Positions 15,460 to 45,398 of a stretch of 64,000 nt of DNA are shown here, in pieces. The DNA is taken from the sequence record LC788706.1, one strand, 5' to 3'. Each line of letters starts with the position of its first letter. Position 1 is the first letter of the stretch. This DNA comes from Escherichia coli phage KS_S14. The notes under the pieces are model-generated. The model worked only from the letters and a program-made list of their open reading frames with translations, was not told the DNA's origin and ran no database searches. The translations under genes were made by a program, and so were the position numbers.

Positions 15460-17228
15460 ATGGTAACTAAAACAGTAATTCCTACGGATATTACAAAACT
15501 TAAAAATGAGTCACTTAATAAAAATAATAACCTGAGTGACTTAGCAGACCGTGCAGCAGCATGGCTAAATGTGCGTCCTATTGGATCTACCCCTCTTGCT
15601 GGAGATCCTGTTAGTGACTATGATGCCGCAACTAAGCGTTGGGTGGAGAACAAACTTAATACTGGCACAGTAGGACCCACAATGAATGGTGTTATGAACT
15701 ACGGGGTGGGGGATTTTCATCTTCGAGATAGCCGTGCGTATATTCAACCTTATGAGGTAGTTTCTGATGGGCAGCTTCTTAACAGGGCTGACTGGCCTGA
15801 ACTTTGGGCGTATGCACAAATGGTTGGAGCTATAGATGATTCAGTTTGGTTAGCAGATGTAGGACAACGTGGGAAATATTCTACGGGAGATGGTACCACT
15901 ACTTTCCGCGTCCCAGATCGTAATGGTGTGCAACTAAATTCAATCAAAGGGTTATTCGCTCGTGGTGACGGTGGGGGGATGCTGGTCAAGCTGGTTCAAT
16001 ATCAGAAGCTGCAGCACCCAATATTACTGGTAGTTTTCCTGGCGCTATTGCTGGTGCATATGAAGAAGCGCTTAATAGATATTCATCTAGATTTGGTCTT
16101 ATTGGGGCGATTGGTGGTGAAAACGGCTTAGGTGCCGCTCCTGGAGGTGCATCTAAATCATTCGCCGTAGTTAATCCTGATAACCAATACGGATTTAGTT
16201 TTGATGCAAACTTAGCGGACCCTGTTTATGGGCGTTATGGAATAAAAGGTACTATTATTCCAAACAGCTTTATAGGTGTCTGGGTAATCCGTGCTTCTGG
16301 TGGGTTCGTGGCTGCAAAGACTTCGTGGAGTGTTATTAGTGGTGATGCTGTCAAACCTAATACTGGTACTACTGTTTATGGCGGGAGTGTACTATCTGAG
16401 TATAAAGTAGGTACTAGTAGTGAGGCTGTAAGTACACTACGAGCTAAAGCTACTATTGGTGGCACCTACTCTACTGAACTACTAATAGACAATAAATCTA
16501 CCGGTAAATCGAATTCCGCCCAGCTTGTAGATAATGGGGATTTTGTAACGGATCGTTTTAAAGCTAGATTAGTTACTGGCATGGCGTGGTCTCAGACTGG
16601 CTGGGTACAAGGTACTCTTTCTCAGAACGAGGTCAATATAGGTAGTACATTTAACTTTAATAGTATATTGAGCGGTTCCCAGTCTTCTTCCGCAGGGTAT
16701 AAGACATCTGCACATTTTGGATTAATTCATAATGACTTAGGCTCATTTGCAGATTCTTGTTGGCAGGTAGCGGGAGATGATGATAATAAATTTGGTGTGC
16801 GTTTAAAAATTCAGCCGAATAATAATAGTATTTATTTTTATTCTTGGTGGCCAGGTGCTTCAGCAACCTATACTTTGCAATTAAATGCTGTATCTGATTC
16901 TCGCTTAAAGCATGATATTAAGGCTATAGACGCAACTAAGTCCATCGAGGTATTAAAAGGATTAGAATTCCAATCCTTTGTATATAATAACGATGAAAAA
17001 TCTCGTGTCCGACGTGGGGTTATTGCTCAGCAAGTAGAGACTATAGAACCACTTTATGTAAAAACTAGAAAATTTTATAATGATGACGGAATAGAGCAGG
17101 AGCAAAAGGAATTAGATACAACTCCAATGCTTCTTGACACTATGCATGTTGTGCAAGATCTTATTAAACGGATTGAAGATCTAGAGAAAGAGCTTGAGCA
17201 ATTAAAGGTACAATTAGTATCACAATAA
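15460..17228 (+). CDS. side tail fibre distal subunit (LtfB-like): tail-collar domain + C-terminal S74-type intramolecular chaperone; reading frame interrupted at a G6 run
   Basis: Frame 1 (15460-15977) encodes collar-like motif (SDGQLLNRADWPELWAYA...TTFRVPDRNG); frame 0 opens after TGA at 15966-68 and continues to 17228 with Gly/Ala-rich fibre sequence and C-terminal chaperone-like block (SDSRLKHDIKAIDATKSIEVLKGLEFQSF...). Junction is GGGGGG at 15973-15978. Confidence 0.55.
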
Positions 17229-17231
17229 AAG

Positions 17232-17270
17232 AAAACCCCAGTGGACAAAATCCACTGGGGTTTATTATTT
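17232..17270. terminator. bidirectional terminator between convergent tail-fibre and dut genes
   Basis: 10-bp stem CCCCAGTGGA/TCCACTGGGG, loop CAAAA, A/T runs on both sides. Confidence 0.75.
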
Positions 17271-17284
17271 ATTTTATATGTAGA

Positions 17285-17731
17285 TTACTTACTTCCTGAA
17301 CTTCCAAATCCTCCTTCTCCACGTACAGTCTCTTCTAACTCATCAACGATTTCAAAATTATGAGTTGAGTAATGTGGCAATACCACTAGCTGACAAAGTC
17401 TCTCGAAATTCTCCAGAGTTTGCATTTCAGAACCGTAATTATAGAGGTTCATCTTAATAGTACCACGATAGTCTGAGTCGATCACCCCTGCGGTGTTTGC
17501 AATCATCAAATAGCGCTTACCTAAAGAGCTACGAGGAACCACCAAACCGAACCAACCTCGCGGAATTTCTACCGCGACACCGGTGTCAATCATTAGGGAT
17601 TTGCCTGGCGCAATAGCACGTAAATCTGCGGCAGGGTTTGTACCAAAGAATGCTCGCAGATCCATACCTGCGGCATCTTCGGAACCAATCTTAGGCATAC
17701 AATCTGGATTAGTTAATTTAATTTTAATCAT
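17285..17731 (-). CDS. dut: dUTP diphosphatase
   Basis: 148 aa; dUTPase motifs (AGMDLRA, AGVIDSDYRG, C-terminal GGFGSSG). Confidence 0.85.
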   Translation of the reverse strand: MIKIKLTNPDCMPKIGSEDAAGMDLRAFFGTNPAADLRAIAPGKSLMIDTGVAVEIPRGWFGLVVPRSSLGKRYLMIANTAGVIDSDYRGTIKMNLYNYGSEMQTLENFERLCQLVVLPHYSTHNFEIVDELEETVRGEGGFGSSGSK

Positions 17732-18603
17732 TGTTCTGCAATCTCCAAAATATCTTTTGTAAACTTATCTAATACATCTTGACCTACAGCAGCAATAGCG
17801 TCCACACAGTAGGTAGGTAAATCAACTAAAATTAGGTTTCGATAAAGCAATTCTTCCGAAGCATTTAAATTCTGTATATATTTCTGTTTTCCAGGTAGTG
17901 GAAGCTGATCAATAATATCCAGAACGTTACCAAATTCACGAATAATATTATACCCGCGTTTTGCCCCAATACCTTCAACACCACGGATATTATCCCCTAA
18001 ATCACCCATAATTGCTTTCAGAGAGATAAACTGCTCTACATCGTCAACATTATGGTGCTCATACATATCACGAAGATGATATTCACGACGTGTTGTAAAA
18101 GAGAAGCGAGAAACTTTATCAGTTAATAAAGTATCCCAGTCACCATCGGTAGAAATTAGCCAAACATGATCATATAGATGCCCAATCAGCTTAACAATAT
18201 AAGCTGCCATATCATCTGCTTCTACACCACGAATAGTGAAGGTTGGGAATGTAGTTTCACATAGTTCGAAAGCATCTTTCAAATACTCGAAAAACTGCTC
18301 ATCTAACGCTTTTTCCTCTTCCGTACGCTGAGAGTATTTCTCATCTCGATTCCCTTTATACTCTGGAAGATGCTCTAGGCGGAATGCAGACTTTCCTTTA
18401 TCCCCTAAAACTATTGTAGTTCTAGCAGAATAAGATTTTGCTAGAGACTGAATAGTGGAAACATAACTTGAGGCAAATGGTTTTTTACTATTGTTATGTT
18501 TGAAGCGGAAGCCTAAGTTAGTTCCATCAACAATCATTAGGTTACGACGGGAAGCCATTTCAGCTTCCTCTTCTTCAATAAATTTTCCCCAGGATTTACT
18601 CAT
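17728..18603 (-). CDS. flap endonuclease / 5'-3' exonuclease (T5 D15-like)
   Basis: 291 aa; N-terminal MIVDGTNLGFR nuclease motif; acidic clusters typical of FEN family. Confidence 0.85.
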   Translation of the reverse strand: MSKSWGKFIEEEEAEMASRRNLMIVDGTNLGFRFKHNNSKKPFASSYVSTIQSLAKSYSARTTIVLGDKGKSAFRLEHLPEYKGNRDEKYSQRTEEEKALDEQFFEYLKDAFELCETTFPTFTIRGVEADDMAAYIVKLIGHLYDHVWLISTDGDWDTLLTDKVSRFSFTTRREYHLRDMYEHHNVDDVEQFISLKAIMGDLGDNIRGVEGIGAKRGYNIIREFGNVLDIIDQLPLPGKQKYIQNLNASEELLYRNLILVDLPTYCVDAIAAVGQDVLDKFTKDILEIAEQ

Positions 18604-35763: not shown

Positions 35764-38605
35764 CTAGCTCTGCCATTGCTTCATCATGCATATGTTTCTC
35801 CTCATCAGTCATAAACTTATACGGGATTGGCATACACTCGATTTTACAATAGGTTCTGTACCAGTCTACAATATTCTCCGTGTTCATATCCTTACCAATA
35901 CCCATCATACCAAGATACATTCTAGCATATTTTGGGTTAGCACTCTGACCTGTTTTAAGGAAGAAATCTTTCTTCTTACCTTTCAGAGCTTCTATAAATG
36001 GTTTGATAGTGACATTTGAACACTTCTTAATATCTTCCCAGAACATCTCGTGCATTTTATGGAAAAATGCCGCTCGATCATTCGGTTTATCCTTAATATA
36101 TTGTTCAACATGCTCAACTGTTACATCTTTAATAGACTCAAGATGATAATAGCGAACAAGAAGTAGTTTAGCTTCATACGCATCAGCATGGCGTGGAGCA
36201 CAATAATCAGGGGTTGAATATAAAATAGCTTTGATTCGCTCTTCCGTATATTCCTTCCCAGCACCTTCGATAGTTCCCCAGCTTTCACTGAAAATATCAA
36301 TAGTTGCACCCTGATCAAGCAAGTAATAACGTAAAGTACTAGTATAGTTCCTAGATTCCAGCTCTCTACGACGTGCGTATAATTGCTGTGCTAACTCCAG
36401 CCAACCTTCATCAATGTTATATTGCTCAGAACCTGCGGAGAATCCACTCGTAGATTTATCAATAAAATAATAAATGTTCTGAGCGCCACGGTCGCGCCTG
36501 ATTGCTTGAAAACGCATGTTTGGCGCTTGGTTGCTGGTTCTAGTAATAACGAATACGTTATCAAAATAGTTGAAGTCAACACCACTAGTTACGGAGGGAC
36601 TACATAATAAGCAATCAATTTGTTGATCAATTAGCTCATTAGTTGTGTAATCCAGAATACGTCGAATATCTACATCAGACGTAGAGTTTGAGTGGATTTC
36701 CTTAACTAACGCACCCGTATTACGACGCAGCGCCATACCCTTCTCATTCAGTTCATCCGGGCCACAATCAGATACCAGAATAGATTTCTCCCCCATTTCT
36801 AGAGAAGTCTGAAGTGCAACCCAAATACTGGATTCATCAGGGAACTCATAAGCATGAGCTTTTGACAGCATTTTACGGTGATGATTATAAAATGCAACCG
36901 GTTTATCAAACTCAATTAAAGAACCATATGCTTCAATTGTTTCTGCACTAATATCCCCATCAGATAATATAATAATTTTTGCAGTTGCAAGAATGTCACG
37001 TAGAACTTGAATACATTCGCGACGTTGTTTAACAACCGGGGCGAATAATAGGTCATTCATTACAGCATCACATTCATCGATAAAGATTGCATCAATTTGA
37101 CCAATAAAACTCTTGAACTTATGCAAAGAGTGAATAGTTGTGGACATACGGTCAATAGCACCACGCTTAAAATTAAGCATATCTACAGACTTATCATATT
37201 GTCCTGCACTAAATTTCTTAGCATTTGAAGATACCAGTGCTCGAGTATTGGTAATTGCTAAGAAATTACCTTTAATAACTCCTGAATCTAACCAACGCAC
37301 AACCGCCGTAGTTTTACCTGTACCTAGACTTGCTTTTACAAAAGTCATATAACCTTCTGGTGGTACAGTATTTAATTTCAAGAAGTTATCAGTTTCTAGA
37401 GAATTAGTTTCTAGCTTTTTAAGTGGAATACCTTTTAAAACATCAGGTATATCGCGTTTAGAATTATTAACAAACGCTTTCAGAGCCTGTTTACGGCCGT
37501 TATTAAAGTAATCTTGAATATTACGACTATTATCTTTAGTTGCAATATATTCTGATAAGGCTGGACGGATTTCTTTTTCTAGCCATGCAAAATCAACACC
37601 ATCCTCCAAAGCTCTATGATAGAGTTTAGGTATAATACGTAGATACACCCCATCCTCAGCTTCTTCTAGTTCGCTGATAGTTTCCTCTACTTTATCAGAG
37701 GCAGCTTTTTTACCTTTAATTTGATCGAGTAAAGAGTAAAACTCCTCCTTAAACTCACCTCTAGTTGTTTCATAGTCAACCAGATTATTGGGTAAATTTA
37801 CTTTAGAACCCTTAACAAATACCAGACGTGAAGCACCCTCCGCTTTAAACGGATCTACTATACCATCGGTAAATAACGGATCTGCAAAATAATGGAGCTG
37901 TACGGAAGAGTAATACGCTAAGTCGGCAATATCAAAGCCATACTTTTGTCTACTACTTTCGTTGATAGATGTAAATAAGAATTTGATTTGACCCTGAGTT
38001 ACTTTAACATTAGATTCTAGTATTAAGTGCATTCGGATACCTGGTTTTAGCCCAGACGAAGACGATGCATGAGCGATAAACCCTGCATCAAGAGGAAACA
38101 TATCCTCACTAATACTATTTAACATTCTAATAATATGTCGAGCCATGCCAACAAGATCAAACTTGTTACAACCACCTGTATCTACAATACCATCCACGTC
38201 CATTGCAATTATATGACTTGGGTTAGATACATTAAAGTTGCCCTTCTTACGTCGCACATTATTTTTAGGTGCAAGACATCGACCTCGTACCGCAACGATA
38301 TGAGGGTCAGACGTTAAACGTCTCATAAGAGGGAGCATTTCTACTAGGGTTTGAGGATCAACTTCATCAATTACATCAAACTTGAAGGGCATTGAAGCTG
38401 GTTTACCTTCAGGATGCTTTGAGGAAAATCTTTTAGCAAAAAGATAGTCTTCTGCTTTAACTTCTCGCCAATTGCCTGTGGCTAAATCGCGATGAAATCC
38501 TGCATGACCTTGTAGGATTGAGAACACAACGATACTCCTGTGTTGGAAATGAAATAAGTTTTCTTTAGGACTATTCAGAAAGAATAGAACAACTGTTACT
38601 GTCAA
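35738..38605 (-). CDS. large P-loop ATPase, putative origin-binding / helicase-like replication protein
   Basis: Walker A SLGTGKTT, Walker B-like FIDECD; start uncertain (ORF track start is TTG at 38605; an internal ATG near 38400 is possible). Confidence 0.6.
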   Translation of the reverse strand: MTVTVVLFFLNSPKENLFHFQHRSIVVFSILQGHAGFHRDLATGNWREVKAEDYLFAKRFSSKHPEGKPASMPFKFDVIDEVDPQTLVEMLPLMRRLTSDPHIVAVRGRCLAPKNNVRRKKGNFNVSNPSHIIAMDVDGIVDTGGCNKFDLVGMARHIIRMLNSISEDMFPLDAGFIAHASSSSGLKPGIRMHLILESNVKVTQGQIKFLFTSINESSRQKYGFDIADLAYYSSVQLHYFADPLFTDGIVDPFKAEGASRLVFVKGSKVNLPNNLVDYETTRGEFKEEFYSLLDQIKGKKAASDKVEETISELEEAEDGVYLRIIPKLYHRALEDGVDFAWLEKEIRPALSEYIATKDNSRNIQDYFNNGRKQALKAFVNNSKRDIPDVLKGIPLKKLETNSLETDNFLKLNTVPPEGYMTFVKASLGTGKTTAVVRWLDSGVIKGNFLAITNTRALVSSNAKKFSAGQYDKSVDMLNFKRGAIDRMSTTIHSLHKFKSFIGQIDAIFIDECDAVMNDLLFAPVVKQRRECIQVLRDILATAKIIILSDGDISAETIEAYGSLIEFDKPVAFYNHHRKMLSKAHAYEFPDESSIWVALQTSLEMGEKSILVSDCGPDELNEKGMALRRNTGALVKEIHSNSTSDVDIRRILDYTTNELIDQQIDCLLCSPSVTSGVDFNYFDNVFVITRTSNQAPNMRFQAIRRDRGAQNIYYFIDKSTSGFSAGSEQYNIDEGWLELAQQLYARRRELESRNYTSTLRYYLLDQGATIDIFSESWGTIEGAGKEYTEERIKAILYSTPDYCAPRHADAYEAKLLLVRYYHLESIKDVTVEHVEQYIKDKPNDRAAFFHKMHEMFWEDIKKCSNVTIKPFIEALKGKKKDFFLKTGQSANPKYARMYLGMMGIGKDMNTENIVDWYRTYCKIECMPIPYKFMTDEEKHMHDEAMAELGARNDSEE

Positions 38606-39019
38606 TTTCTCAACAAATTAATTGCAAATACTGAAGTGGGGTGGCAACTTCCACTTTCACGCTACACTGCCGCTTCACTATACCGCACAAATCCTTGAGG
38701 ATGGCCGCTAAGCCAGATTTGCTCACCTAATGCTTCATGTACTAGCTCATACTAGATGTAGTATACCTTACGTCATCACTTCTCAGAGTTTTTCACTCTT
38801 CCCGTCTCACTTCACAACCACCTCACACTAGGTTGCTTCGAGGCCTTACCAGGGTTCCTACGGGATGTAGATCGCTAAGTATTCTATTAATTATTTGTTT
38901 AAAAACTAACACGTAACAGTTAAAACAACCCTTAATGGGGCAGCCTAACTGTTCCGTATCGCGGATTGTAAACAAGAAAAATTAGCAAAATCAATTTTTA
39001 CTAATGTCTCTCAATTCAA

Positions 39020-39065
39020 TATAAATATTATATCAAGATTTTGGGCATCCTGCAAGTAAAATTTT
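39020..39065 (-). promoter_or_regulatory. T5-type promoter (minus strand) ~400 nt upstream of large ATPase gene
   Basis: attata 39027-32, ctgcaa 39050-55 (= TTGCAG), 17-bp spacer. Confidence 0.55.
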
Positions 39066-39131
39066 CCGGATGGTGCTATCATTGGTCTTGAGTACGGATA
39101 AAACCGAGCCAAAATGACTCGGTTATGTGGA

Positions 39132-39329
39132 TTAGACACTTAAAATACTTCTAATCTCTTCTATATACTTATCTACTTTTTTAGCATCTACTTTACTTAG
39201 TTTTCCTATGTCAAAATCAGGATCAGTAAACATTCTAGCTATCTCTATCTCTAGAGACTTACTAATTTTCCCTGTAGTATTCCACTTAGAAATCTTCCCT
39301 TTTATTTTCCAAAATTCCTTATTCATCAT
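39132..39329 (-). CDS. hypothetical protein
   Basis: 65-aa ORF, last gene of coupled operon. Confidence 0.35.
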   Translation of the reverse strand: MMNKEFWKIKGKISKWNTTGKISKSLEIEIARMFTDPDFDIGKLSKVDAKKVDKYIEEIRSILSV

Positions 39330-39711
39330 TTAATCCCGGAACATATACCCCAACACGATTTAATTGTTCTTTAGCTTCTTTGAGAATATCTGGAGTGTAC
39401 TCCCAAATATCATCTTCCACCTGTAAAAGATGGGGCGAACAACTATCATCAGGCACACGACATATGGCCAAACCACGTGGATGGAACAAAGAGAAGTTTA
39501 GGGCAACAATCAAGCCCATAGCAGACAACTCATTCCAATCCAGTTCCCATTCCCCGGCGTATCCAGACAGGAAAACGCCAATGCATGGATCATCTATTTG
39601 CTGCTCAGGAAAAGTGAAGGAGGCTTGTCTTACCCCCAACCAACGTTGTAGCAGCTTCTCCGCACGTTTCACCAAACTAGGGTCAATCTGACGCCAATAT
39701 ACTTGTTCCAT
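39319..39711 (-). CDS. hypothetical protein, paralogue of adjacent 142-aa ORF
   Basis: Shares PCIG, MGL..ALN..LF.P and C-terminal PGL motifs with 39721-40149 product. Confidence 0.5.
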   Translation of the reverse strand: MEQVYWRQIDPSLVKRAEKLLQRWLGVRQASFTFPEQQIDDPCIGVFLSGYAGEWELDWNELSAMGLIVALNFSLFHPRGLAICRVPDDSCSPHLLQVEDDIWEYTPDILKEAKEQLNRVGVYVPGLNDE

Positions 39712-39720
39712 TGTGCCCCC

Positions 39721-40149
39721 TTAGGCGGTTAAACCCGGAATTTGATAACCAAAACGACGAAGTTTTTGGATACCATCATTTACTTCTTCTGGTGAGTAAG
39801 ACCAACCATACCGTTCATTAACTTGAAAACCAGGAGATTCGTTGGTTTTATAGTTAACAACAATACGGTGTTTATTAGGCATAAACAGCCTATAGTTTAA
39901 CGCAAAAACCAAGCCCATTTCATCCAACTCTTTCCAGCCAACAATCTCTTCAAGACCCTCCTCTACCTGCACAATTAAACCAATACAGGGAGCTTCTTCA
40001 ATCTCGCCTTTAAAAGCAAAGGAGATTTCATTATTCTCACACCATATTTTCAGAGCATTAATAGCCTCATTGTACAGGTTGGCTGGAAGAGTACGCCAAA
40101 AATTAACCAATATCGGGTTAGCCTCTTTAGAGAATACATTATTGAACAT
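39721..40149 (-). CDS. hypothetical protein, paralogue of adjacent 130-aa ORF
   Basis: See paralogue; tandem duplication. Confidence 0.5.
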   Translation of the reverse strand: MFNNVFSKEANPILVNFWRTLPANLYNEAINALKIWCENNEISFAFKGEIEEAPCIGLIVQVEEGLEEIVGWKELDEMGLVFALNYRLFMPNKHRIVVNYKTNESPGFQVNERYGWSYSPEEVNDGIQKLRRFGYQIPGLTA

Positions 40150-40151
40150 AT

Positions 40152-40658
40152 TTACACCTTAAATTGTTGTAGGGCTTTACACATTTCAAGATCTGGGCTA
40201 AATTCTAACATATAGCTAACAGCTCTTAAATCTTGAAGATTTATTCCAGTTCTACCATTGACTATAACCGTTGGATACTGATACATCATAGCACCAGCAT
40301 CATCCAGCACACACCAATGTTTGAGCCTATGCTTTTCAACGAAGCGAAGAACAGAATTACCCCTAGATAATCCACCACCAGTAAAATCCGTTGTACCAAG
40401 AAAACGATCAATAAGATCTAATCCGGTCATAATCTGAACGTTCTCCATCTCATTCCTGACAGAGAACCATGAAGATACTCCAACAATCATTATTGGGGAA
40501 GGACGAATAAAGTCCTGAAAAGCCTTGAGAAGCGGTTTAAAAACCCAGTCACTTCCAAAGAAAATCTTTTCATCATCAGGTGCATGGTGATGGGAGATGC
40601 TCGAGTTGAGCACCCCATCAATATCTAGAAAAATAATTGGAGTATTACTTATTTCCAT
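40152..40658 (-). CDS. HAD-superfamily phosphatase-like protein
   Basis: N-terminal IIFLDIDGVLN (DxDG motif I) and later VLDDAG. Confidence 0.5.
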   Translation of the reverse strand: MEISNTPIIFLDIDGVLNSSISHHHAPDDEKIFFGSDWVFKPLLKAFQDFIRPSPIMIVGVSSWFSVRNEMENVQIMTGLDLIDRFLGTTDFTGGGLSRGNSVLRFVEKHRLKHWCVLDDAGAMMYQYPTVIVNGRTGINLQDLRAVSYMLEFSPDLEMCKALQQFKV

Positions 40659-40827
40659 TTTTGTCCCTTTCTAAGAACGTATCATACTCAACCGTATCAA
40701 CATATATGACACCATAGTCATCGGATTTATAGTCCATTTCCCATAGCTCACACCGATAGCACCAACTACCATCCGCCCATACAAATATATCATCTGGATG
40801 TGTATACACAGATTTAACTATGGACAT
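40645..40827 (-). CDS. hypothetical small protein
   Basis: 60-aa ORF overlapping both neighbours. Confidence 0.3.
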   Translation of the reverse strand: MSIVKSVYTHPDDIFVWADGSWCYRCELWEMDYKSDDYGVIYVDTVEYDTFLERDKNGNK

Positions 40828-41642
40828 ATTTGTTTTCCCGGCATATAAGGTCTACCCTCTAAATGGGCTTCCACACGAGCAATAAAACCAGGGTCACTGA
40901 AAGCATCTACCGCACCTTTACTCCAGTAAGAAATACCCCGATCTTCCAGTTGGTACATATCACTACGAGTCATGCCTTGATAGCCTGGTTCTGCCGCTAG
41001 GGCACTATCGTAGTAGTTAACCACCATAAGTTTCGCAGCAGTCAAATTAAGAATAGGAAATAATTCCCAGTAGAAGTTAATTACTTGGTTAGAGCAACCA
41101 ACTACAACGATCATATCTTGACTGGTAATACCATCAAAAATATTGTACATTTCTGCGTACGCTGGAGCATGCTCACCAAAGAAGATTACATTAGGTTTAA
41201 CCCATTTATAATCATCTGGGTCAATAGAGCTATACCCAACATCAATAACTCGTTTATTGCTACTATTGTAGCTGTCAGCTACAACAACCTCTTTTAAATA
41301 CCCATGAATATGCAAAATGTCACTATGCGGAACACCAGCACGCTCAATAAGGTCATCAACGTTAGTAGTCAAATTTACTACTTGACCCGGATATTTCTTA
41401 TACCATTCACCAATACGCAAGTGTGCAAGATTGGGTTCAACAGTTTTTAGCTCTTCACGTCGCTTGTTGTAAAACATATGGGTTTTATGATAAAAATTAC
41501 CACGAAAGGCATGAATATTACATACCTCTTCTAAGTCATACTCATCCCACAATGCTTTACCACTGGCAGTATCAGTACGGAAGGCTCGTACACCACTTTC
41601 GACACTCAAACCCGCACCGCTAATAATAATTAATCTACGCAT
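40818..41642 (-). CDS. Sir2-family (sirtuin-fold) NAD-binding protein lacking the zinc ribbon
   Basis: ISGAGLSVESGVRAFR (GAGIS.ESGI..FR motif), TTNVDDLIERAG, HIHGYL catalytic-His motif; no CxxC...CxxC pair. Confidence 0.7.
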   Translation of the reverse strand: MRRLIIISGAGLSVESGVRAFRTDTASGKALWDEYDLEEVCNIHAFRGNFYHKTHMFYNKRREELKTVEPNLAHLRIGEWYKKYPGQVVNLTTNVDDLIERAGVPHSDILHIHGYLKEVVVADSYNSSNKRVIDVGYSSIDPDDYKWVKPNVIFFGEHAPAYAEMYNIFDGITSQDMIVVVGCSNQVINFYWELFPILNLTAAKLMVVNYYDSALAAEPGYQGMTRSDMYQLEDRGISYWSKGAVDAFSDPGFIARVEAHLEGRPYMPGKQICP

Positions 41643-41856
41643 TTTTCACCTGTTCTCTGAAGTTTTGCCCAATACTGTCTAATAGCTCAGCTAATTCTTT
41701 ATTGCCTTCCTCCATTAAGGTATTAGCAATAACTTCTAGCATAGTAGCGCAGGATTCAACACCATCCTTATAGCCAGTTTCCCAGTGCTGCATTAATGCG
41801 TTTTCCAAAGCGGCGTTTAAACCCTTATCTGGTAGCATCGGCTTCGAGAATGCCAT
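41635..41856 (-). CDS. hypothetical protein
   Basis: 73-aa ORF. Confidence 0.35.
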   Translation of the reverse strand: MAFSKPMLPDKGLNAALENALMQHWETGYKDGVESCATMLEVIANTLMEEGNKELAELLDSIGQNFREQVKNA

Positions 41857-42028
41857 AAAGTTTCTCCTCTAGTTCCATAACACGATTTTCATAAGAGGCA
41901 CGCAACTTTTCAATTGCCAGCGCACGCACTGTAACCTCATTAGAATTAATAGCTAACTGGGCCAGATCTTCTGTTTCCATACGTCCGTTGTAAATTAAGC
42001 GATATTTAAGATGTTTTACGTTTTTCAT
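41825..42028 (-). CDS. hypothetical protein
   Basis: 67-aa ORF. Confidence 0.35.
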   Translation of the reverse strand: MKNVKHLKYRLIYNGRMETEDLAQLAINSNEVTVRALAIEKLRASYENRVMELEEKLYGILEADATR

Positions 42029-42037
42029 TCTTGTTCC

Positions 42038-42319
42038 TTAGTTCTGTACTGTAAATTCATTCTTATCACAGTGAGCATAATAATACCCATACATACGATA
42101 AATTTTCACAGCCTTAGTAGACCCCTTCGATTCTTCATAATCAATCCAGAGCCACTTGTCTTTACCTACATAATGTACCCGAAACTTCTTAACTTTCTTA
42201 TCATTCCATGTTGCAACAACACGACGATAATCAAATCCGCCCAACCAATCTAGAGCCTTACGTTCTTCACTAGGCCCCCCAAGATGGGAGACATCTACTT
42301 TAGGAAGCAATTCGCTCAT
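42038..42319 (-). CDS. hypothetical protein
   Basis: 93-aa ORF, first gene after T5-type promoter. Confidence 0.4.
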   Translation of the reverse strand: MSELLPKVDVSHLGGPSEERKALDWLGGFDYRRVVATWNDKKVKKFRVHYVGKDKWLWIDYEESKGSTKAVKIYRMYGYYYAHCDKNEFTVQN

Positions 42320-42339
42320 AGCTTTCTCCTCTCAAATTT

Positions 42340-42385
42340 ATAAATCTATTATATATAAATTTTTGGCTGAAAGCAAATAAAATAA
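42340..42385 (-). promoter_or_regulatory. T5-type promoter (minus strand) heading the Sir2-containing operon
   Basis: attata 42348-53, aagcaa 42371-76, 17-bp spacer. Confidence 0.6.
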
Positions 42386-42418
42386 AAGCCAGGTCGACTA
42401 GCAACCCGGCTGATTAGC

Positions 42419-44293
42419 TTATTTAGCTCGAATATCCTGATGTTTCACCCTGCCCATAACCTCGTGCTGTTTGCCGGGGTTAAATGGACGAGCACCTGGA
42501 TTTCCAAGATACCCACAAACTCGACGAGTTACTTCAAGAGTTTCGGGGTCATGATTACCACAGATAGGGCACTTAAATCCATCTTCGGATGCTACTGTTT
42601 CACCTAAGAATCCACATTTACCGCAAGAATCCACTGGAGTATTAATACCGAAGTAATGAACCTTACTAGCAGCATAATTAATAACCCATTCCAGTGCATC
42701 TGGGAATCGTTTCATATCTGGTAGTTCTACATAAGAGATACACCCACCAGAAGCAATCGGAGTAAAGTTAGATTCATAATCAAACTTCACGTTAGGAGCA
42801 ACTTTTCGTTCCACATCAAGGTGGTGAGAGTTAGTGTAGTATCCTTTGGACAGAATATCTTCATGCTCCGGGAAATATTCACGGTCTAGACGACAAAAAC
42901 GGTCACATAGGGATTCTGATGGTGTAGCATACAGGCTATAACCTAACTTAGTTTCTTCCTTCTTCTGATCGACTCTATCCCGCATGTACTGCAATACACG
43001 CTGAACAAACTTGATGCAGGTCTCGGACATTGTGTCTACATCTTTGCCAAACATGAACTGTAGCATTTCATGGCAACCAATATACCCCAGAGATACAGAA
43101 GCACGGTTATAAAAATGATCAAATACATATTCATCAGGCTCCAAGCGTAACCCAAAGGCTCCTGACATATAGAGGATGGGTGCAGCTTTAGCTTGGATGT
43201 ATTTTAAGCGATCAACTCTCCACTCCAATGCTTTTAACGCTGTATCCACACGTAGCTCAAGCAAATCAAAGAATAGATCAATATTTCCTTCAGCTTCGAT
43301 AGCAATTCTAGGCAAGTTTACAGAAACAACACCTAAGTTATTACGGCCAGCAGTTTCACCATCTTCTGCAGCAGCTAGGAATGAACGGCAGCCCATAGAA
43401 ACTTTGTAGTCTCCAGTAACTTCTACAACTTTGTCATAGCTGATATAATCTGGATACATACGTTCAGCAGTACATTTCATAGCTAACTTCTTGATGTCAT
43501 AATTAACATCTCCTGGTTTCATATTTACGCCATCACGAAGTACAAATACCAGTTTCGGGAAGATAGCTGTACGTTTATTGATACCTAAACCATCCATGCG
43601 TACTTTCAGTATTGCCCTCTGTACTAGACGTGCTTCCCAAGAAGTTCCTAGACCAAAACCAAAGGTAATAAATGGACTCTGACCATTAGAGTTGAACATG
43701 GTATTGATTTCATATTCTAAACCCTGACAAGCGTCATAGACTTCTTTTTCAGTCATCTCCGTAGCCATTACGGATGCTTTGGCTTCATCCTTAGTCCAAC
43801 GTTTTGCAAACGCATGATTTTTATCATAGGACTTACGAACATAAGGGGCTAATACTTCATCTAATCGGTCTACAGAAGTACCACCATACTGATGGGAGCT
43901 AACCTGTGTGATAATCTGAGCTGTAATAGCAGCAGCAGTAGTGATAGAGTTTGGAGTGCTAATTTCAGCATTACCAACCTTCATACCATTCTTCAACATA
44001 TCTTCCAGAGCTACCAGACAACAGTTAGTCATGCCTAATGCGGCATAATCAGCATCATGGAAATGAATATCTCCAATCATATGAGCATTTCGAATCTGAA
44101 TTGGCATTTCTTCTAGAATCAGATACTTACTCAATTCACCTGCAAGCATATCCCTTTGTGTAGGGAAACGTTCTGAGGGTTTATTGGCATTATTAAACAG
44201 CAGCTCTTCATCTGCTGATCCTTCGATAATCTCTTTGCAGTTTCTAATTAACGCCTGCATTTCTTTATACTTTAGTTCTTCATTACGATTCAT
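42419..44293 (-). CDS. nrdD: anaerobic ribonucleoside-triphosphate reductase
   Basis: 624 aa; C-terminal zinc ribbon CGKCGF...CPICGN and glycyl-radical motif RRVCGYLG; strong RBS. Confidence 0.9.
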   Translation of the reverse strand: MNRNEELKYKEMQALIRNCKEIIEGSADEELLFNNANKPSERFPTQRDMLAGELSKYLILEEMPIQIRNAHMIGDIHFHDADYAALGMTNCCLVALEDMLKNGMKVGNAEISTPNSITTAAAITAQIITQVSSHQYGGTSVDRLDEVLAPYVRKSYDKNHAFAKRWTKDEAKASVMATEMTEKEVYDACQGLEYEINTMFNSNGQSPFITFGFGLGTSWEARLVQRAILKVRMDGLGINKRTAIFPKLVFVLRDGVNMKPGDVNYDIKKLAMKCTAERMYPDYISYDKVVEVTGDYKVSMGCRSFLAAAEDGETAGRNNLGVVSVNLPRIAIEAEGNIDLFFDLLELRVDTALKALEWRVDRLKYIQAKAAPILYMSGAFGLRLEPDEYVFDHFYNRASVSLGYIGCHEMLQFMFGKDVDTMSETCIKFVQRVLQYMRDRVDQKKEETKLGYSLYATPSESLCDRFCRLDREYFPEHEDILSKGYYTNSHHLDVERKVAPNVKFDYESNFTPIASGGCISYVELPDMKRFPDALEWVINYAASKVHYFGINTPVDSCGKCGFLGETVASEDGFKCPICGNHDPETLEVTRRVCGYLGNPGARPFNPGKQHEVMGRVKHQDIRAK

Positions 44294-44314
44294 TATACTC
44301 TCCTTCTCTAACTA

Positions 44315-44360
44315 AGACTACTATTATAACTCATTCGAGGGCGGATGTCAACAATATTTT
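44315..44360 (-). promoter_or_regulatory. sigma70 consensus promoter (minus strand) upstream of nrdD
   Basis: Minus strand TTGACA (plus 44346-51), 17 bp, TATAAT (plus 44323-28). Confidence 0.6.
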
Positions 44361-44529
44361 ACTATAAAGTTCTGTAACATGATCTGAGTCAAAAAATTTT
44401 ATTTGCCAATCTCTATTAAAAATTATATAATCACGCACTCGTGCACGCGATATAAAATGATTATCTAGTATCACACATCTCACGTTAAAAGCAAGCAAAT
44501 TTTTTATTTAAATGCAATATCATAGGCTT

Positions 44530-44580
44530 ATTTAAAATTGTAGTTGCTTTTTACTGTATATATTGGTATAATATATTTGT
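44530..44580 (+). promoter_or_regulatory. sigma70-type early promoter upstream of phoH
   Basis: TTGCTT (44545-50), 16 bp, TATAAT (44567-72), AT-rich upstream. Confidence 0.55.
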
Positions 44581-44645
44581 AAGTTGATAAACAAGATCTT
44601 TTTGTTGATCCTCTGTTAGCGAAGTACACTATAGGAGTGTTATTT

Positions 44646-45398
44646 ATGGGAAAAGCACGTCAAAAAAGAGAGAACCGCAATGGTTCAAGAAAGCGTGGCA
44701 ACAAATATGAGAATAACGTAATTCAGGCTGATTTTTCTAATGATTACGCTAACCCAGTTGCTAAATCCCTAGTAGGTAAAAACCGCGAGCAAAAATCATA
44801 TATCAATATGATCAAGAACAACACAGTGACTGTGGGTATTGGTGAGCCAGGTACTGGTAAAACCTTTATCCCGTCTGTTCTTGCAGCTCAGGAACTCGTA
44901 GACATTCACTCAGATATTGAGCAAGTGATTCTCGTACGTCCTAATGAACCTCTAGGTAAGTCTCTTGGTATGCTTCCTGGTGATCTAGCAGAAAAGCTAG
45001 AGCCTTGGTTAGAGCCAATAGCTGATGGTATGAAATGGGCCATCGGTGATCATGCGTATAAAGGATATGTCGAACGTCAGAAAATTAAATTTTTGGCTAT
45101 AGAACATGCTCGTGGCAGAACTTTCAACAACTCCTATGTAATTGTCGATGAAGCTCAGAATATTTCCGTTGAGGCAATGGTTTGTCTCCTAACTCGTGTA
45201 GGACAAGACTGCCGTTTAATTATCTGCGGAGATATAGCTCAGAAGGACATTAAAGGTGACTCAGGTCTAGCACTTCTTATGGAAGTTTATGAGAAATATG
45301 AAAATGCTCCATTCTCAATGATCGAATTGATTGATAACGTTCGTTCTGCTGAGTCTAAAGCATTCTACGATATTTTTAAAGACATGGGAAAGGTGTAA
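44646..45398 (+). CDS. phoH: PhoH-like ATPase
   Basis: Walker A GEPGTGKTF, Walker B VIVDEAQN; ATG 44646 preceded by RBS taggag. Confidence 0.85.
   Translation: MGKARQKRENRNGSRKRGNKYENNVIQADFSNDYANPVAKSLVGKNREQKSYINMIKNNTVTVGIGEPGTGKTFIPSVLAAQELVDIHSDIEQVILVRPNEPLGKSLGMLPGDLAEKLEPWLEPIADGMKWAIGDHAYKGYVERQKIKFLAIEHARGRTFNNSYVIVDEAQNISVEAMVCLLTRVGQDCRLIICGDIAQKDIKGDSGLALLMEVYEKYENAPFSMIELIDNVRSAESKAFYDIFKDMGKV

Follow-up and report, generated by a model that had tools for sequence, protein, structure and literature searches.

In the class III sirtuins SIRT5 and CobB, a Y-x-x-R pair binds an anionic group. Sirtuin catalysis is also paralleled by the two steps of the established Tpt1/KptA mechanism. 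This Tpt1/KptA analogy was drawn by Iyer, Burroughs, Anantharaman and Aravind (2022), who named a neighbourhood made of a phage sirtuin and a SAK-like HAD, with phage SP15 as the type example, and predicted that it removes RNA 2'-phosphates in a Tpt1/KptA-like, NAD-dependent reaction (PMC9503650). Another NAD-handling phage module, NARP1-AP, consists of Adps, the Macro-domain protein Adpp and Namat; it makes the dephosphorylation of ADPR-1''-phosphate a proven phage need, and its description scanned for Macro domains only (Osterman et al. 2026 preprint).

The window analysed here, a 64,000-nucleotide stretch of Escherichia coli phage KS_S14 (LC788706.1), is of Tequintavirus type and contains a locus like that of SP15: a phage-clade sirtuin and a SAK-like HAD are parted only by a 60-aa ORF, and the SP15 proteins are 98–99% identical to those of the window. 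Both genes belong to a nine-ORF minus-strand block (39132–42319; Table 1), which corresponds to T5.100–T5.107, begins at a single early promoter of T5 type and ends at a conserved terminator. An earlier note on this DNA had described nine ORFs of 93, 67, 73, 274, 60, 168, 142, 130 and 65 aa between nrdD and the replication block, and we found exactly this arrangement, with nrdD on one side and an origin-binding gene on the other. The note had also seen in it a candidate for an undescribed system, which does not hold, as T5.102 is annotated as Sir2 in T5 and the sirtuin–HAD neighbourhood is published together with a functional prediction (PMC9503650). The block is thus already known as a well-conserved T5-like early gene block, for which a role as an NAD-using RNA-repair module was predicted in 2022. 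That paper is silent on the 60-aa partner, the DUF7415 pair, the variants without HAD or DUF7415 and the absence of ligase from T5-likes (PMC9503650), and a literature search found no biochemical or genetic study of the block proteins. Here, we confirm that in rV5-like phages this sirtuin clade lies among RNA-ligase, cREC and kinase genes, and we add the persistence of Sir2–HAD linkage through order inversion and the presence of distant HAD relatives in NARP1-type NAD-rebuilding operons.

Table 1. Features of the nine-ORF block, listed in transcription order (window coordinates).
Feature	Position	Strand	Family or details
nrdD intrinsic terminator (upper boundary of the unit)	42387..42411	-	10-bp stem with 6 GC pairs, then TTTTATTTTAT
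T5 early-type sigma-70 promoter	42348..42376	-	-35 TTGCTT (42376-42371), 17-nt spacer, -10 TATAAT (42353-42348)
ORF1, 93 aa, basic (pI 9.1), variable cargo	42038..42319	-	phrog_7953
ORF2, 67 aa	41825..42028	-	phrog_5236
ORF3, 73 aa, acidic, variable cargo	41635..41856	-	phrog_5827
Zinc-less class III-type sirtuin, T5.102 orthologue, phage-specific clade	40818..41642	-	Pfam PF02146
60-aa acidic protein, T5.104 orthologue	40645..40827	-	phrog_5116
Predicted HAD_SAK_2 phosphatase, 168 aa, T5.105 orthologue	40152..40658	-	PF18143, 3e-20
DUF7415 protein A, T5.106 orthologue, 142 aa with two copies of the repeat	39721..40149	-	
DUF7415 protein B, 130 aa, T5.107 orthologue, paralogue of A	39319..39711	-	PF24187, 9e-31
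ORF9, 65 aa, basic, lysine-rich, variable cargo	39132..39329	-	phrog_29527
Terminator hairpin (lower boundary of the unit)	39098..39124	-	AACCGAGTC-ATTTT-GGCTCGGTT, then TT-A-T

The genes are tightly coupled, as the earlier note had observed: the junctions measure +9, −32, −8, −10, −14, +2, +9 and −11 nt in transcription order, five of the eight overlapping and no gap exceeding 9 nt. In contrast, 12 of 24 junctions in the replication block of S131, a close relative, are gaps of 22–220 nt. A plausible Shine-Dalgarno sequence precedes all nine starts; for ORF3 it is GAGGAG, upstream of the longer start that gives 73 aa. The single T5-type promoter proposed earlier can be read from the sequence, and its counterpart upstream of T5.100 is annotated in T5; the window promoter presumably resembles T5 PN25. 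A consensus scan overlooked it because TTGCTT fits TTGACA at only three of six positions, and a consensus scan did not report the lower terminator hairpin (~39124–39098). This hairpin is kept in four phages (the window, S131, T5 and SB13), and T5 annotates a rho-independent terminator there; the upper hairpin (42411–42387) lies 8 nt past the nrdD stop codon. Against S131, T5 and SB13, dN/dS was 0.00–0.17 for ORFs 1, 2 and 4–8, whereas ORFs 3 and 9 reached about 0.3, and each of the nine ORFs matches a PHROG family. Thus, all nine are real genes, and these comparisons indicate that they are under purifying selection.

The 274-aa protein has the Sir2 fold that had been claimed for it. PF02146 (SIR2) matched residues 9–187 with 88.4 bits against a cut-off of 24 (7e-25), the best PDB match was CobB (1s5p, 7e-18), and an AF2 model (pLDDT 87.9) searched with Foldseek retrieved CobB (TM 0.84), then SIRT5, Sir2-Af1 and Sir2Tm. 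By sequence and modelled fold, the class III deacylases CobB and SIRT5 are therefore its nearest relatives. Across 21 clade members, G9-A10-G11-S13, F21-R22, T92-T93-N94-V95-D96 and H113-G114 are invariant, and the GAGIS.ESG..FR and HG motifs read earlier are borne out, the former as GAGxS..SG..FR; TTNVDDL stands in place of the TQNID motif, with Q changed to T. The segment F57-Y58-N-x-R61-R62, also invariant, aligns with FYNARR of CobB and contains the class III acidic-acyl Y-x-x-R pair (Y58 and R61), the equivalent of SIRT5 Y102/R105 in the established literature. The zinc ribbon is indeed missing, with no cysteine at residues 116–148 here or in 20 diverse clade members, and the model keeps a three-stranded small-domain sheet in its place (strands 114–122, 130–134 and 147–152). 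In the FGE substrate-stapling loop, the Gly is variable across the clade, and some members have H, E, R or C instead. Thus, the phage sirtuin shares fold, NAD-binding motifs, catalytic His and Y-x-x-R pair with CobB and SIRT5 but differs from them by its lost zinc cysteines, TTNVD for TQNID, a ~60-residue C-terminal extension and membership of a phage-specific clade whose neighbours belong to RNA repair or NAD pathways. The clade occurs in 1004 phage records, and the gene evolves with a dN/dS of 0.09–0.16.

Defence NADases of the Sir2 superfamily (ThsA, DSR1/2, SIR2-HerA and SPARSA) also have structures without a zinc ribbon, and the earlier note had judged the configuration more typical of NAD-cleaving enzymes. 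The data point elsewhere: Pfam SIR2_2 gave no match to the 274-aa protein at E <= 1, PADLOC defence models gave none at E <= 0.01, and the best 50 Foldseek matches of the model are all classical deacylase sirtuins, with no defence NADase among them; the invariance of the class III Y-x-x-R pair also speaks against such an enzyme. Domain profiles of the eight neighbour proteins detected no SLOG, HerA, pAgo, TIR or large C-terminal sensor or partner domain. The protein does not resemble defence-type SIR2 NADases: unlike those enzymes, it lacks a sensor or partner domain, is phage-encoded and is expressed early. By Pfam, the block has no Macro-domain gene, the mark of SirTM, and none was seen beside this sirtuin clade in the 2022 study either (PMC9503650).

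The 168-aa product is a predicted HAD phosphatase, as had been proposed, with a PF18143 score of 73.3 bits (cut-off 27.5), dN/dS of 0.02–0.08 and all four catalytic motifs intact: D12-x-D14-G-V, S62-S63-W, G-G-G-x-x-R99 and D119-D120 are invariant in 14 sequences with identity down to 32%. This protein is often mislabelled “Sir2”, an error whose source is phrog_18062, and its UniRef name is “RNA repair protein”. The 142-aa and 130-aa proteins are paralogues, again as noted before (32% identity, E = 1e-20). Each has two repeats of DUF7415 (PF24187; 112 and 106 bits, cut-off 27), a family without known fold, and dN/dS is 0.05–0.17 for protein B. In Slopekvirus-like phages, a Nudix gene lies two genes from a single-domain DUF7415. 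In five T5-like lineages the ORF overlapping the Sir2 stop has a common motif, D-I/L-F/L-V-W-x-D/N-G-S-W-C-Y-R, and by this measure the sirtuin of T5-likes always has the 60-aa protein as its downstream partner. Homologues of the 60-aa protein occur in 490 records, and a Felix O1-like phage has it on its own.

Comparison across phages revealed several features of the block: (i) only Sir2 and the 60-aa protein form a constant pair in T5-likes, whereas the presence of HAD, DUF7415 and ORFs 1, 3 and 9 is optional; (ii) Tequintavirus and Epseptimavirus have Sir2, then the 60-aa gene, then HAD, and three divergent T5-like contigs have HAD first, followed by small ORFs and Sir2, so that the linkage of Sir2 and HAD outlasts gene-order inversion; and (iii) between Tequintavirus and Epseptimavirus, Sir2 is 62% and HAD 89% identical, which argues that the two recombine independently. 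The nine genes are one transcription unit, not one coherent system.

In rV5-like phages, the same sirtuin clade (55–61% identical) sits within tight RNA-repair operons. V5, whose sirtuin is 55.7% identical to that of the window, has the order RnlA, cREC, Sir2, plus a divergent PNK-like AAA_33 kinase and a calcineurin-like phosphoesterase; a 142-kb Salmonella phage has a co-oriented run of phosphoesterase, HNH, RNA ligase, cREC, ATPase, Sir2 and DNA ligase, with MazG three genes on. HAD_SAK_2 homologues (36–43% identical) lie directly upstream of Prs-like and NAPRTase-like pairs, which fit the NARP1 signature, in three ~150-kb Vequintavirinae myophage lineages. In Aeromonas phage PX29 the HAD overlaps DUF4326, a predicted ADPr-phosphate phosphatase; its position near rnlA may, we assume from the T4 map, only mirror T4-backbone synteny.

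What could the sirtuin and the HAD do together? An NAD-linked counter-defence role of the block is our leading hypothesis. Tentatively, and with somewhat less than even confidence, we propose a functional core of two enzymes, an NAD-consuming module that would process phosphate esters and counter RNA-targeting defence. From the gene structure, families, intact active sites and patterns of conservation and linkage, we infer possible substrates, an order of reactions and a biological role. Host RNA polymerase would transcribe T5.100–T5.107 early, from one strong promoter to one terminator. The sirtuin would bind NAD+ and, through His113 chemistry, move ADP-ribose onto a phosphate monoester, most likely the 2'-phosphate that an RNA would carry once a tRNA has been cleaved by an anticodon or ribotoxic nuclease of the host and its 2',3'-cyclic end opened. 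This step would free nicotinamide and, as in Tpt1/KptA, expel the phosphate as ADP-ribose 1'',2''-cyclic phosphate. By analogy, the phage protein would thus share with Tpt1/KptA NAD-dependent ADP-ribosyl transfer to the 2'-phosphate followed by 2''-OH attack; it differs in fold (Rossmann sirtuin against ART superfamily), and its activity is a prediction. The HAD_SAK_2 phosphatase may then strip off either the terminal phosphate still on the RNA or the one on the ADP-ribose by-product, so that damaged RNA ends would become ligatable and the defence would be countered. The 60-aa acidic protein is probably a partner or regulator of the sirtuin, the DUF7415 pair may be facultative accessory factors with a tie to nucleotide or RNA biochemistry, and exchangeable cargo would make up ORFs 1–3 and 9.

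Several observations argue for RNA-end repair: the family assignments and intact catalytic motifs of both enzymes, the RNA-repair operons of V5 and the Salmonella phage, the exact coverage of the SP15-type neighbourhood by the published KptA-like prediction, the survival of Sir2–HAD linkage through rearrangement and the independent tie of the HAD subfamily to NAD/ADPR chemistry in NARP1-signature operons and beside DUF4326. The invariant Y58-x-x-R61 anion-binding pair and the about 24 tRNA genes of T5-likes point the same way. Against it, annotation and tblastn showed no RNA ligase, cREC, PNK-like kinase or NARP1 enzyme in T5-likes; specifically, the S131 annotation has no RNA ligase, and tblastn with V5, R7 and PX29 RnlA was negative in the window and the S131/T5 loci. 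Sealing would therefore have to be host-supplied. In addition, the sirtuin is acidic (pI 5.6), which is uncommon for an RNA-binding enzyme, its nearest relatives are protein deacylases, and Klebsiella T5-likes hold Sir2 without HAD. More speculative, and in our view improbable as a whole, is the idea that the zinc-less protein is the first sirtuin with a phosphate-ester acceptor (RNA 2'-phosphate, not acyl-lysine), that HAD_SAK_2 is a new non-Macro ADP-ribose-phosphate or ribose-phosphate phosphatase paired with a sirtuin in T5-likes or NARP1 in Vequintavirinae, and that the 60-aa WxDGSWCYR protein is a dedicated sirtuin regulator. If true, RNA-end healing and NAD salvage would be joined via a shared metabolite, ADP-ribose (cyclic) phosphate.

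Alternatively, the sirtuin could be a plain lysine deacylase. As the phage's own version of CobB, it would take succinyl or acetyl groups off host or phage proteins early in infection and so reprogramme metabolism, with the HAD and other genes as unrelated neighbours. Its best sequence and structure matches (CobB, SIRT5, Sir2-Af1 and Sir2Tm), the invariant NAD-binding motifs, catalytic His and class III Y-x-x-R, and the small-domain sheet retained in the model all fit such an enzyme. We nevertheless consider it unlikely, because all seven NCBIfam CobB/deacylase equivalog models scored far under their cut-offs (best 100 against 243 bits), zinc ligands are lost clade-wide and the FGE-loop Gly varies, the conserved neighbours elsewhere are RNA-end-processing enzymes and not protein-modification genes, Sir2–HAD linkage endures inversion, and CobB is already available from the host.

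The module may also act on small NAD-derived molecules and not on RNA. The HAD would dephosphorylate ADPR-1''-phosphate, ADPR cyclic phosphate or another phosphorylated NAD derivative produced by host NAD-targeting defences, as a non-homologous analogue of the Macro-domain Adpp, and the sirtuin would process or detoxify a related metabolite or signal. NARP1 operons that have acquired an ADPR-1P phosphatase are known, and HAD_SAK_2 relatives take such an accessory position upstream of the three NARP1-signature pairs; the DUF4326 overlap in PX29 and the Nudix gene near DUF7415 in Slopekvirus-like phages agree. The T5 block resembles NARP1-AP in attaching a phosphatase to an NAD-handling module, but Adpp is a Macro domain where T5-likes have a HAD, and a sirtuin replaces Adps and Namat. 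Against this reading, no homologue of Adps (Prs-like) or Namat (Nampt-like) was found in the window or the S131/T5 loci, so T5-likes have neither to use the ADPR produced. Moreover, sirtuin chemistry consumes NAD, also needed by T5's own NAD-dependent DNA ligase, and no Sir2 lies within 30 kb of the HAD–NARP1 operon of ChuuTotoro; the two HAD contexts may therefore reflect different roles. We regard action on small molecules as doubtful, and retain NAD-consuming RNA-end repair as the preferred reading.

Least probable is a mosaic of independent accessory early genes, co-transcribed only through compact T5 genomes and shared promoters: it agrees with the unequal Sir2 and HAD identities, with the absence of HAD from Klebsiella T5-likes and of DUF7415 from divergent ones, and with the 60-aa protein, HAD and DUF7415 each occurring alone in unrelated phage families, but Sir2 and HAD are never more than three genes apart in five T5-like lineages, which show two opposite orders, the pair of Sir2 and 60-aa protein is constant, and the alternative HAD partner is likewise an NAD pathway. 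ORFs 1, 3 and 9 are missing from T5, which also fits a mosaic; ORF9 is 46% identical in S131 and missing at this position from Roth50 and SB13 as well, and ORF3 is just 34% identical in SB13. ORF1, missing also from Roth50, is 98–99% identical in S131 and SB13 (dN/dS 0.08–0.16), and ORF2, again missing from Roth50, is present in S131, T5 and SB13 (dN/dS 0.00–0.09). The T5 and S131 copies of the 60-aa protein are 100% identical to that of the window, though dS is 0.10–0.13.

The window belongs to a T5-like phage. The nine minus-strand ORFs of the block were found where the earlier note had placed them, and the description that it gave of the sequence (ORFs, promoter, spacing) was accurate. Successive ORFs are separated by +9, -32, -8, -10, -14, +2, +9 and -11 nt and each start is preceded by a Shine-Dalgarno-like sequence; packing is tighter than in the adjoining replication block of phage S131, where half of the 24 junctions are gaps of 22–220 nt. 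The terminator hairpin is kept in four phages (the window, S131, T5 and SB13), and the T5 annotation likewise has a promoter before the block and a rho-independent terminator after it. Its counterpart in the T5 reference is T5.100–T5.107, with nrdD (T5.099) on one side and the origin-binding gene (T5.108) on the other; ORFs 1, 3 and 9 have no counterpart in T5 itself. Positions 39000–42420 match 527 phage records, almost without exception Demerecviridae from Salmonella, Escherichia or Klebsiella (best matches, 93.8–95.9% nucleotide identity). The block is the standard, widely sequenced T5.100–T5.107 early unit. All nine ORFs are under purifying selection, with dN/dS at 0.00–0.17 in ORFs 1, 2 and 4–8 and about 0.3 in the two most variable ORFs, and each has a PHROG family. 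For the five small ORFs besides the sirtuin, the HAD protein and the DUF7415 pair, Pfam, PHROG and NCBIfam searches returned only PHROGs of unknown function, and an Rfam search of window 38000–43000 gave no match.

Coordinates of features in and around the block and of related loci in other phages
Feature	Coordinates	Strand	Remark
nrdD	window 42419-44293		
nrdD terminator hairpin	window 42411-42387	minus	block promoter directly after
Block promoter	window, -35 TTGCTT 42376-42371; 17 nt; -10 TATAAT 42353-42348	minus	read from sequence
Block terminator	window, about 39124-39098	minus	9-bp hairpin, then Ts; after last stop codon
Second promoter (TTGCAG-17-TATAAT) and leader of about 140 nt	window 38900-39055	minus	3' of block terminator, in ORF-free stretch 38606-39098
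HAD_SAK_2 + Prs-like + NAPRTase-like loci	L019 6001-9217; L020 5001-8519; L021 5001-8569		ChuuTotoro and relatives
Single-domain DUF7415, Aeromonas phage PX29	L003 7296-7535		directly after rnlA, overlapping its stop codon
Single-domain DUF7415, Klebsiella Jiaodavirus PKO111	L007 3995-4213		wedged between nrdD and nrdG
Single-domain DUF7415, Klebsiella phage Roth27	L015 2992-3249		labelled 'anti-CBASS protein acb1'
122-aa 'pyruvate formate-lyase' fragment, S131 orf97	L009 25791-26159		

The 274-aa product of ORF4 had been called Sir2-like, and rightly so: it matches Pfam SIR2 (PF02146, 88 bits), and its AlphaFold model (pLDDT 87.9) has a CobB-like fold, with a TM score of 0.84 on CobB (normalised to CobB). 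The closest solved structures by sequence are E. coli CobB (7e-18), SIRT5, Sir2-Af1/Af2 and Sir2Tm, and all 50 of the top 50 structural matches of the model are classical deacylase sirtuins. Aligning 21 clade members, with identity down to 56%, we found GAGxS..SG..FR, F57-Y58-N-x-R61-R62, T-T-N-V-D-D-L and H113-G114 to be invariant. No cysteine of the zinc-ribbon segment is conserved among these 21, in agreement with the missing ribbon noted earlier, and the beta-strands of the module are still present in the model. Y58 and R61, which align to the FYNARR segment of CobB, are the Y-x-x-R pair; in SIRT5 and CobB, its role is to bind the carboxylate of a succinyl or malonyl group. All NCBIfam CobB models score the protein far under their cut-offs. 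Because the fold and motifs are CobB-like, the zinc cysteines are missing and the CobB cut-offs are not reached, we assign it to a phage clade of its own, of zinc-less class III sirtuin derivatives. The clade occurs in 1004 phage records, and more than 1000 sequenced phage genomes carry it (T5-like, rV5-like, phi92-like, KVP40-like and jumbo phages).

The earlier note had found this configuration more typical of NAD-cleaving or ADP-ribosylating enzymes than of deacetylases; the NAD-cleaving reading did not survive: the protein has no match to Pfam SIR2_2, no PADLOC defence model matches it, and the top 50 structural matches are classical sirtuins only, which rules out a defence-type NADase. 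SirTM is ruled out by the missing Macro-domain neighbour. Judging by sequence and predicted fold, the protein is a CobB-type enzyme without zinc. Between Tequintavirus and Epseptimavirus (locus L013 compared with window 40152–41642), the sirtuin is 62% identical, the adjoining HAD 89% and ORF1 99%; the sirtuin allele therefore appears to have been replaced by recombination.

Neither is the system undescribed, as had been supposed. Iyer, Burroughs, Anantharaman and Aravind (Viruses 2022, PMC9503650) described a distinct phage sirtuin clade with three conserved neighbourhoods, the Sir2-HAD core included, and the window proteins are 98–99% identical to those of their phage SP15. They proposed that the sirtuin is KptA/Tpt1-like, taking off RNA 2'-phosphates, and that associated phosphoesterases either prepare the 2'-phosphate substrate or act on the ADPr>P that is formed (PMC9503650). 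Our literature search found no experimental work on the phage sirtuin, HAD_SAK_2 or DUF7415. The block is known and ordinary for the T5-like phage family.

Which genes accompany the sirtuin? We verified the second neighbourhood type of Iyer et al. (PMC9503650) in phage V5, where RnlA, cREC (PF20274) and Sir2 (55.7% identical) abut in the same orientation and a PNK-like AAA_33 kinase and a calcineurin-like phosphoesterase lie on a divergent transcript. A 142-kb Salmonella phage whose Sir2 is 61% identical has phosphoesterase, HNH, RNA ligase, cREC, ATPase, Sir2 and ATP-dependent DNA ligase, with MazG three genes beyond the last. Surroundings in phi92-like and Vibrio KVP40-like phages gave no informative context. 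Among T5-likes, three arrangements emerged: (i) Sir2, 60-aa protein, HAD, DUF7415, DUF7415 in Tequintavirus and Epseptimavirus; (ii) Sir2, small ORF, DUF7415, DUF7415 in Klebsiella T5-likes, where the HAD is missing; and (iii) an inverted order, HAD, one or two small ORFs, Sir2, small ORF, in three divergent metagenomic contigs, where DUF7415 is missing. No partner of the sirtuin is more constant than the 60-aa protein, 100% conserved in the window, T5 and S131 although synonymous sites have diverged; five T5-like lineages share a homologous short ORF across the Sir2 stop (motif DIFVWxDGSWCYR), and in a Felix O1-like phage a homologue occurs on its own. The nine genes form one transcript in which only Sir2 and the 60-aa protein, usually with the HAD, are a linked set.

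The 168-aa protein, correctly recognised as HAD-like, is HAD_SAK_2 (PF18143, 3e-20). Its four motifs (DxDGV, SSW, GGGxxR and DD) are invariant in 14 homologues with identity down to 32%; PDB sequences gave no match. UniRef and one GenBank record name it 'RNA repair protein'. The family phrog_18062, labelled 'Sir2 (NAD-dependent deacetylase)', models the C-terminal half of this phosphatase (whole gene, window 40152–40658), and because of this mislabelling many T5-like records (e.g., RefSeq NC_048009 and NC_005859) annotate two 'Sir2' genes, T5.105 included. The HAD gene is thus widely miscalled in annotation practice.

The most distant HAD_SAK_2 homologues (36–43% identical) come from Vequintavirinae (e.g., Serratia phage ChuuTotoro) and from two metagenomic relatives, where the HAD is directly followed by a Prs-family gene and then a NAPRTase-family gene. 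This pair is the published signature of NARP1 (Adps and Namat), a pathway by which NAD+ is made again from ADPR plus nicotinamide. In some NARP1 operons, a phosphatase of the Macro-domain type, Adpp, has been recruited; it converts ADPR-1''-phosphate, an aRES defence product, to ADPR; the accessory scan was limited to Macro domains, and HAD is unmentioned (Osterman et al. 2026 preprint). The placement of HAD relatives in NARP1-type operons is newly noted here, and the protein is possibly a HAD-type analogue of Adpp in NARP1-AP. No Sir2 lies within 30 kb of the ChuuTotoro operon. The block itself has no place in NARP1, NARP2 or NARP3 (PnuC + NadR), since the window holds no Adps or Namat. In Aeromonas phage PX29, the HAD gene overlaps DUF4326, predicted to process terminal phosphates of ADPr derivatives (Iyer et al., PMC9503650); its reading as a NADAR domain is ruled out because the source classes it as a rhodanese-phosphatase clade. 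Since its neighbours in separate phages are the sirtuin, NARP1 or DUF4326, the HAD subfamily has three independent links to NAD/ADPR chemistry.

DUF7415 gave less. Its single-domain form has three T4-like contexts (table), with a Nudix hydrolase gene two genes away in Slopekvirus-like phages (Roth27 and Margaery); the 'acb1' label in Roth27 looks like a mis-annotation. In some proteins the domain is fused to thymidylate kinase, in others to DUF3850/ASCH. Together, these contexts and fusions suggest a general nucleotide or RNA theme only. Tandem 157-aa ORFs of PX29 are not DUF7415. The nearness of the PX29 HAD to rnlA may only mirror T4-backbone synteny (T4 map).

What is the function of the block? 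The explanation we rank best, tentatively and at somewhat less than an even chance, is that the sirtuin would consume NAD in a Tpt1-like removal of phosphate, that the coupled HAD phosphatase would have RNA ends or the ADPR-phosphate by-product as its substrate, and that both would counter RNA- or NAD-targeting defence. Tpt1-type reactions yield ADPR cyclic phosphate and ADPR-1''-phosphate as by-products. In T5, the RNA-repair model has weaknesses: the sirtuin is acidic (pI 5.6) and has protein deacylases as its closest relatives. The S131 annotation lacks RNA ligase, cREC, PNK-like kinase, V5-type phosphoesterase, Adps and Namat, and tblastn against the window and the S131 and T5 loci found none of them; sealing would therefore fall to host enzymes. 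A plain protein deacylase, in keeping with those relatives and the Y-x-x-R pair, is unlikely beside the RNA ligase neighbourhoods. We consider a purely small-molecule NAD/ADPR module equally improbable; the NARP1 and DUF4326 settings of the HAD are in its favour, and because ADPR>p and ADPR-1''P are also Tpt1-type by-products, it shares its metabolites with RNA repair. Most doubtful is a mosaic of unrelated genes: HAD and DUF7415 are each dispensable among T5-likes, but the Sir2-HAD linkage outlasts rearrangement, and this speaks for a functional tie. If the Tpt1-like prediction is true, sirtuin chemistry would extend to nucleic-acid phosphate acceptors, and phage RNA repair would gain an NAD-dependent arm against anticodon-nuclease defences.

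Several features were observed around the block. The second promoter and leader are virtually 100% identical among the window, S131, T5 and SB13; flanking proteins are just 62–71% identical between the window and SB13. Possible identities of this region (RNA fold z-score -2.1, no Rfam match) are a leader RNA, an sRNA and a DNA element related to the origin, ahead of the origin-binding gene; farther 3' there are two allelic versions with a common island, GGCTTAGCGGCCA. T5-likes have nrdD but no annotated NrdG activase, and their 122-aa 'pyruvate formate-lyase' fragment is perhaps a glycyl-radical spare part of the GrcA kind. In the window, the early/replication block on the minus strand covers about 18–44 kb, and the sign of the GC skew flips at about 17 kb and again at about 44 kb (window 16000–18000 and 43000–45000), where transcription direction switches.
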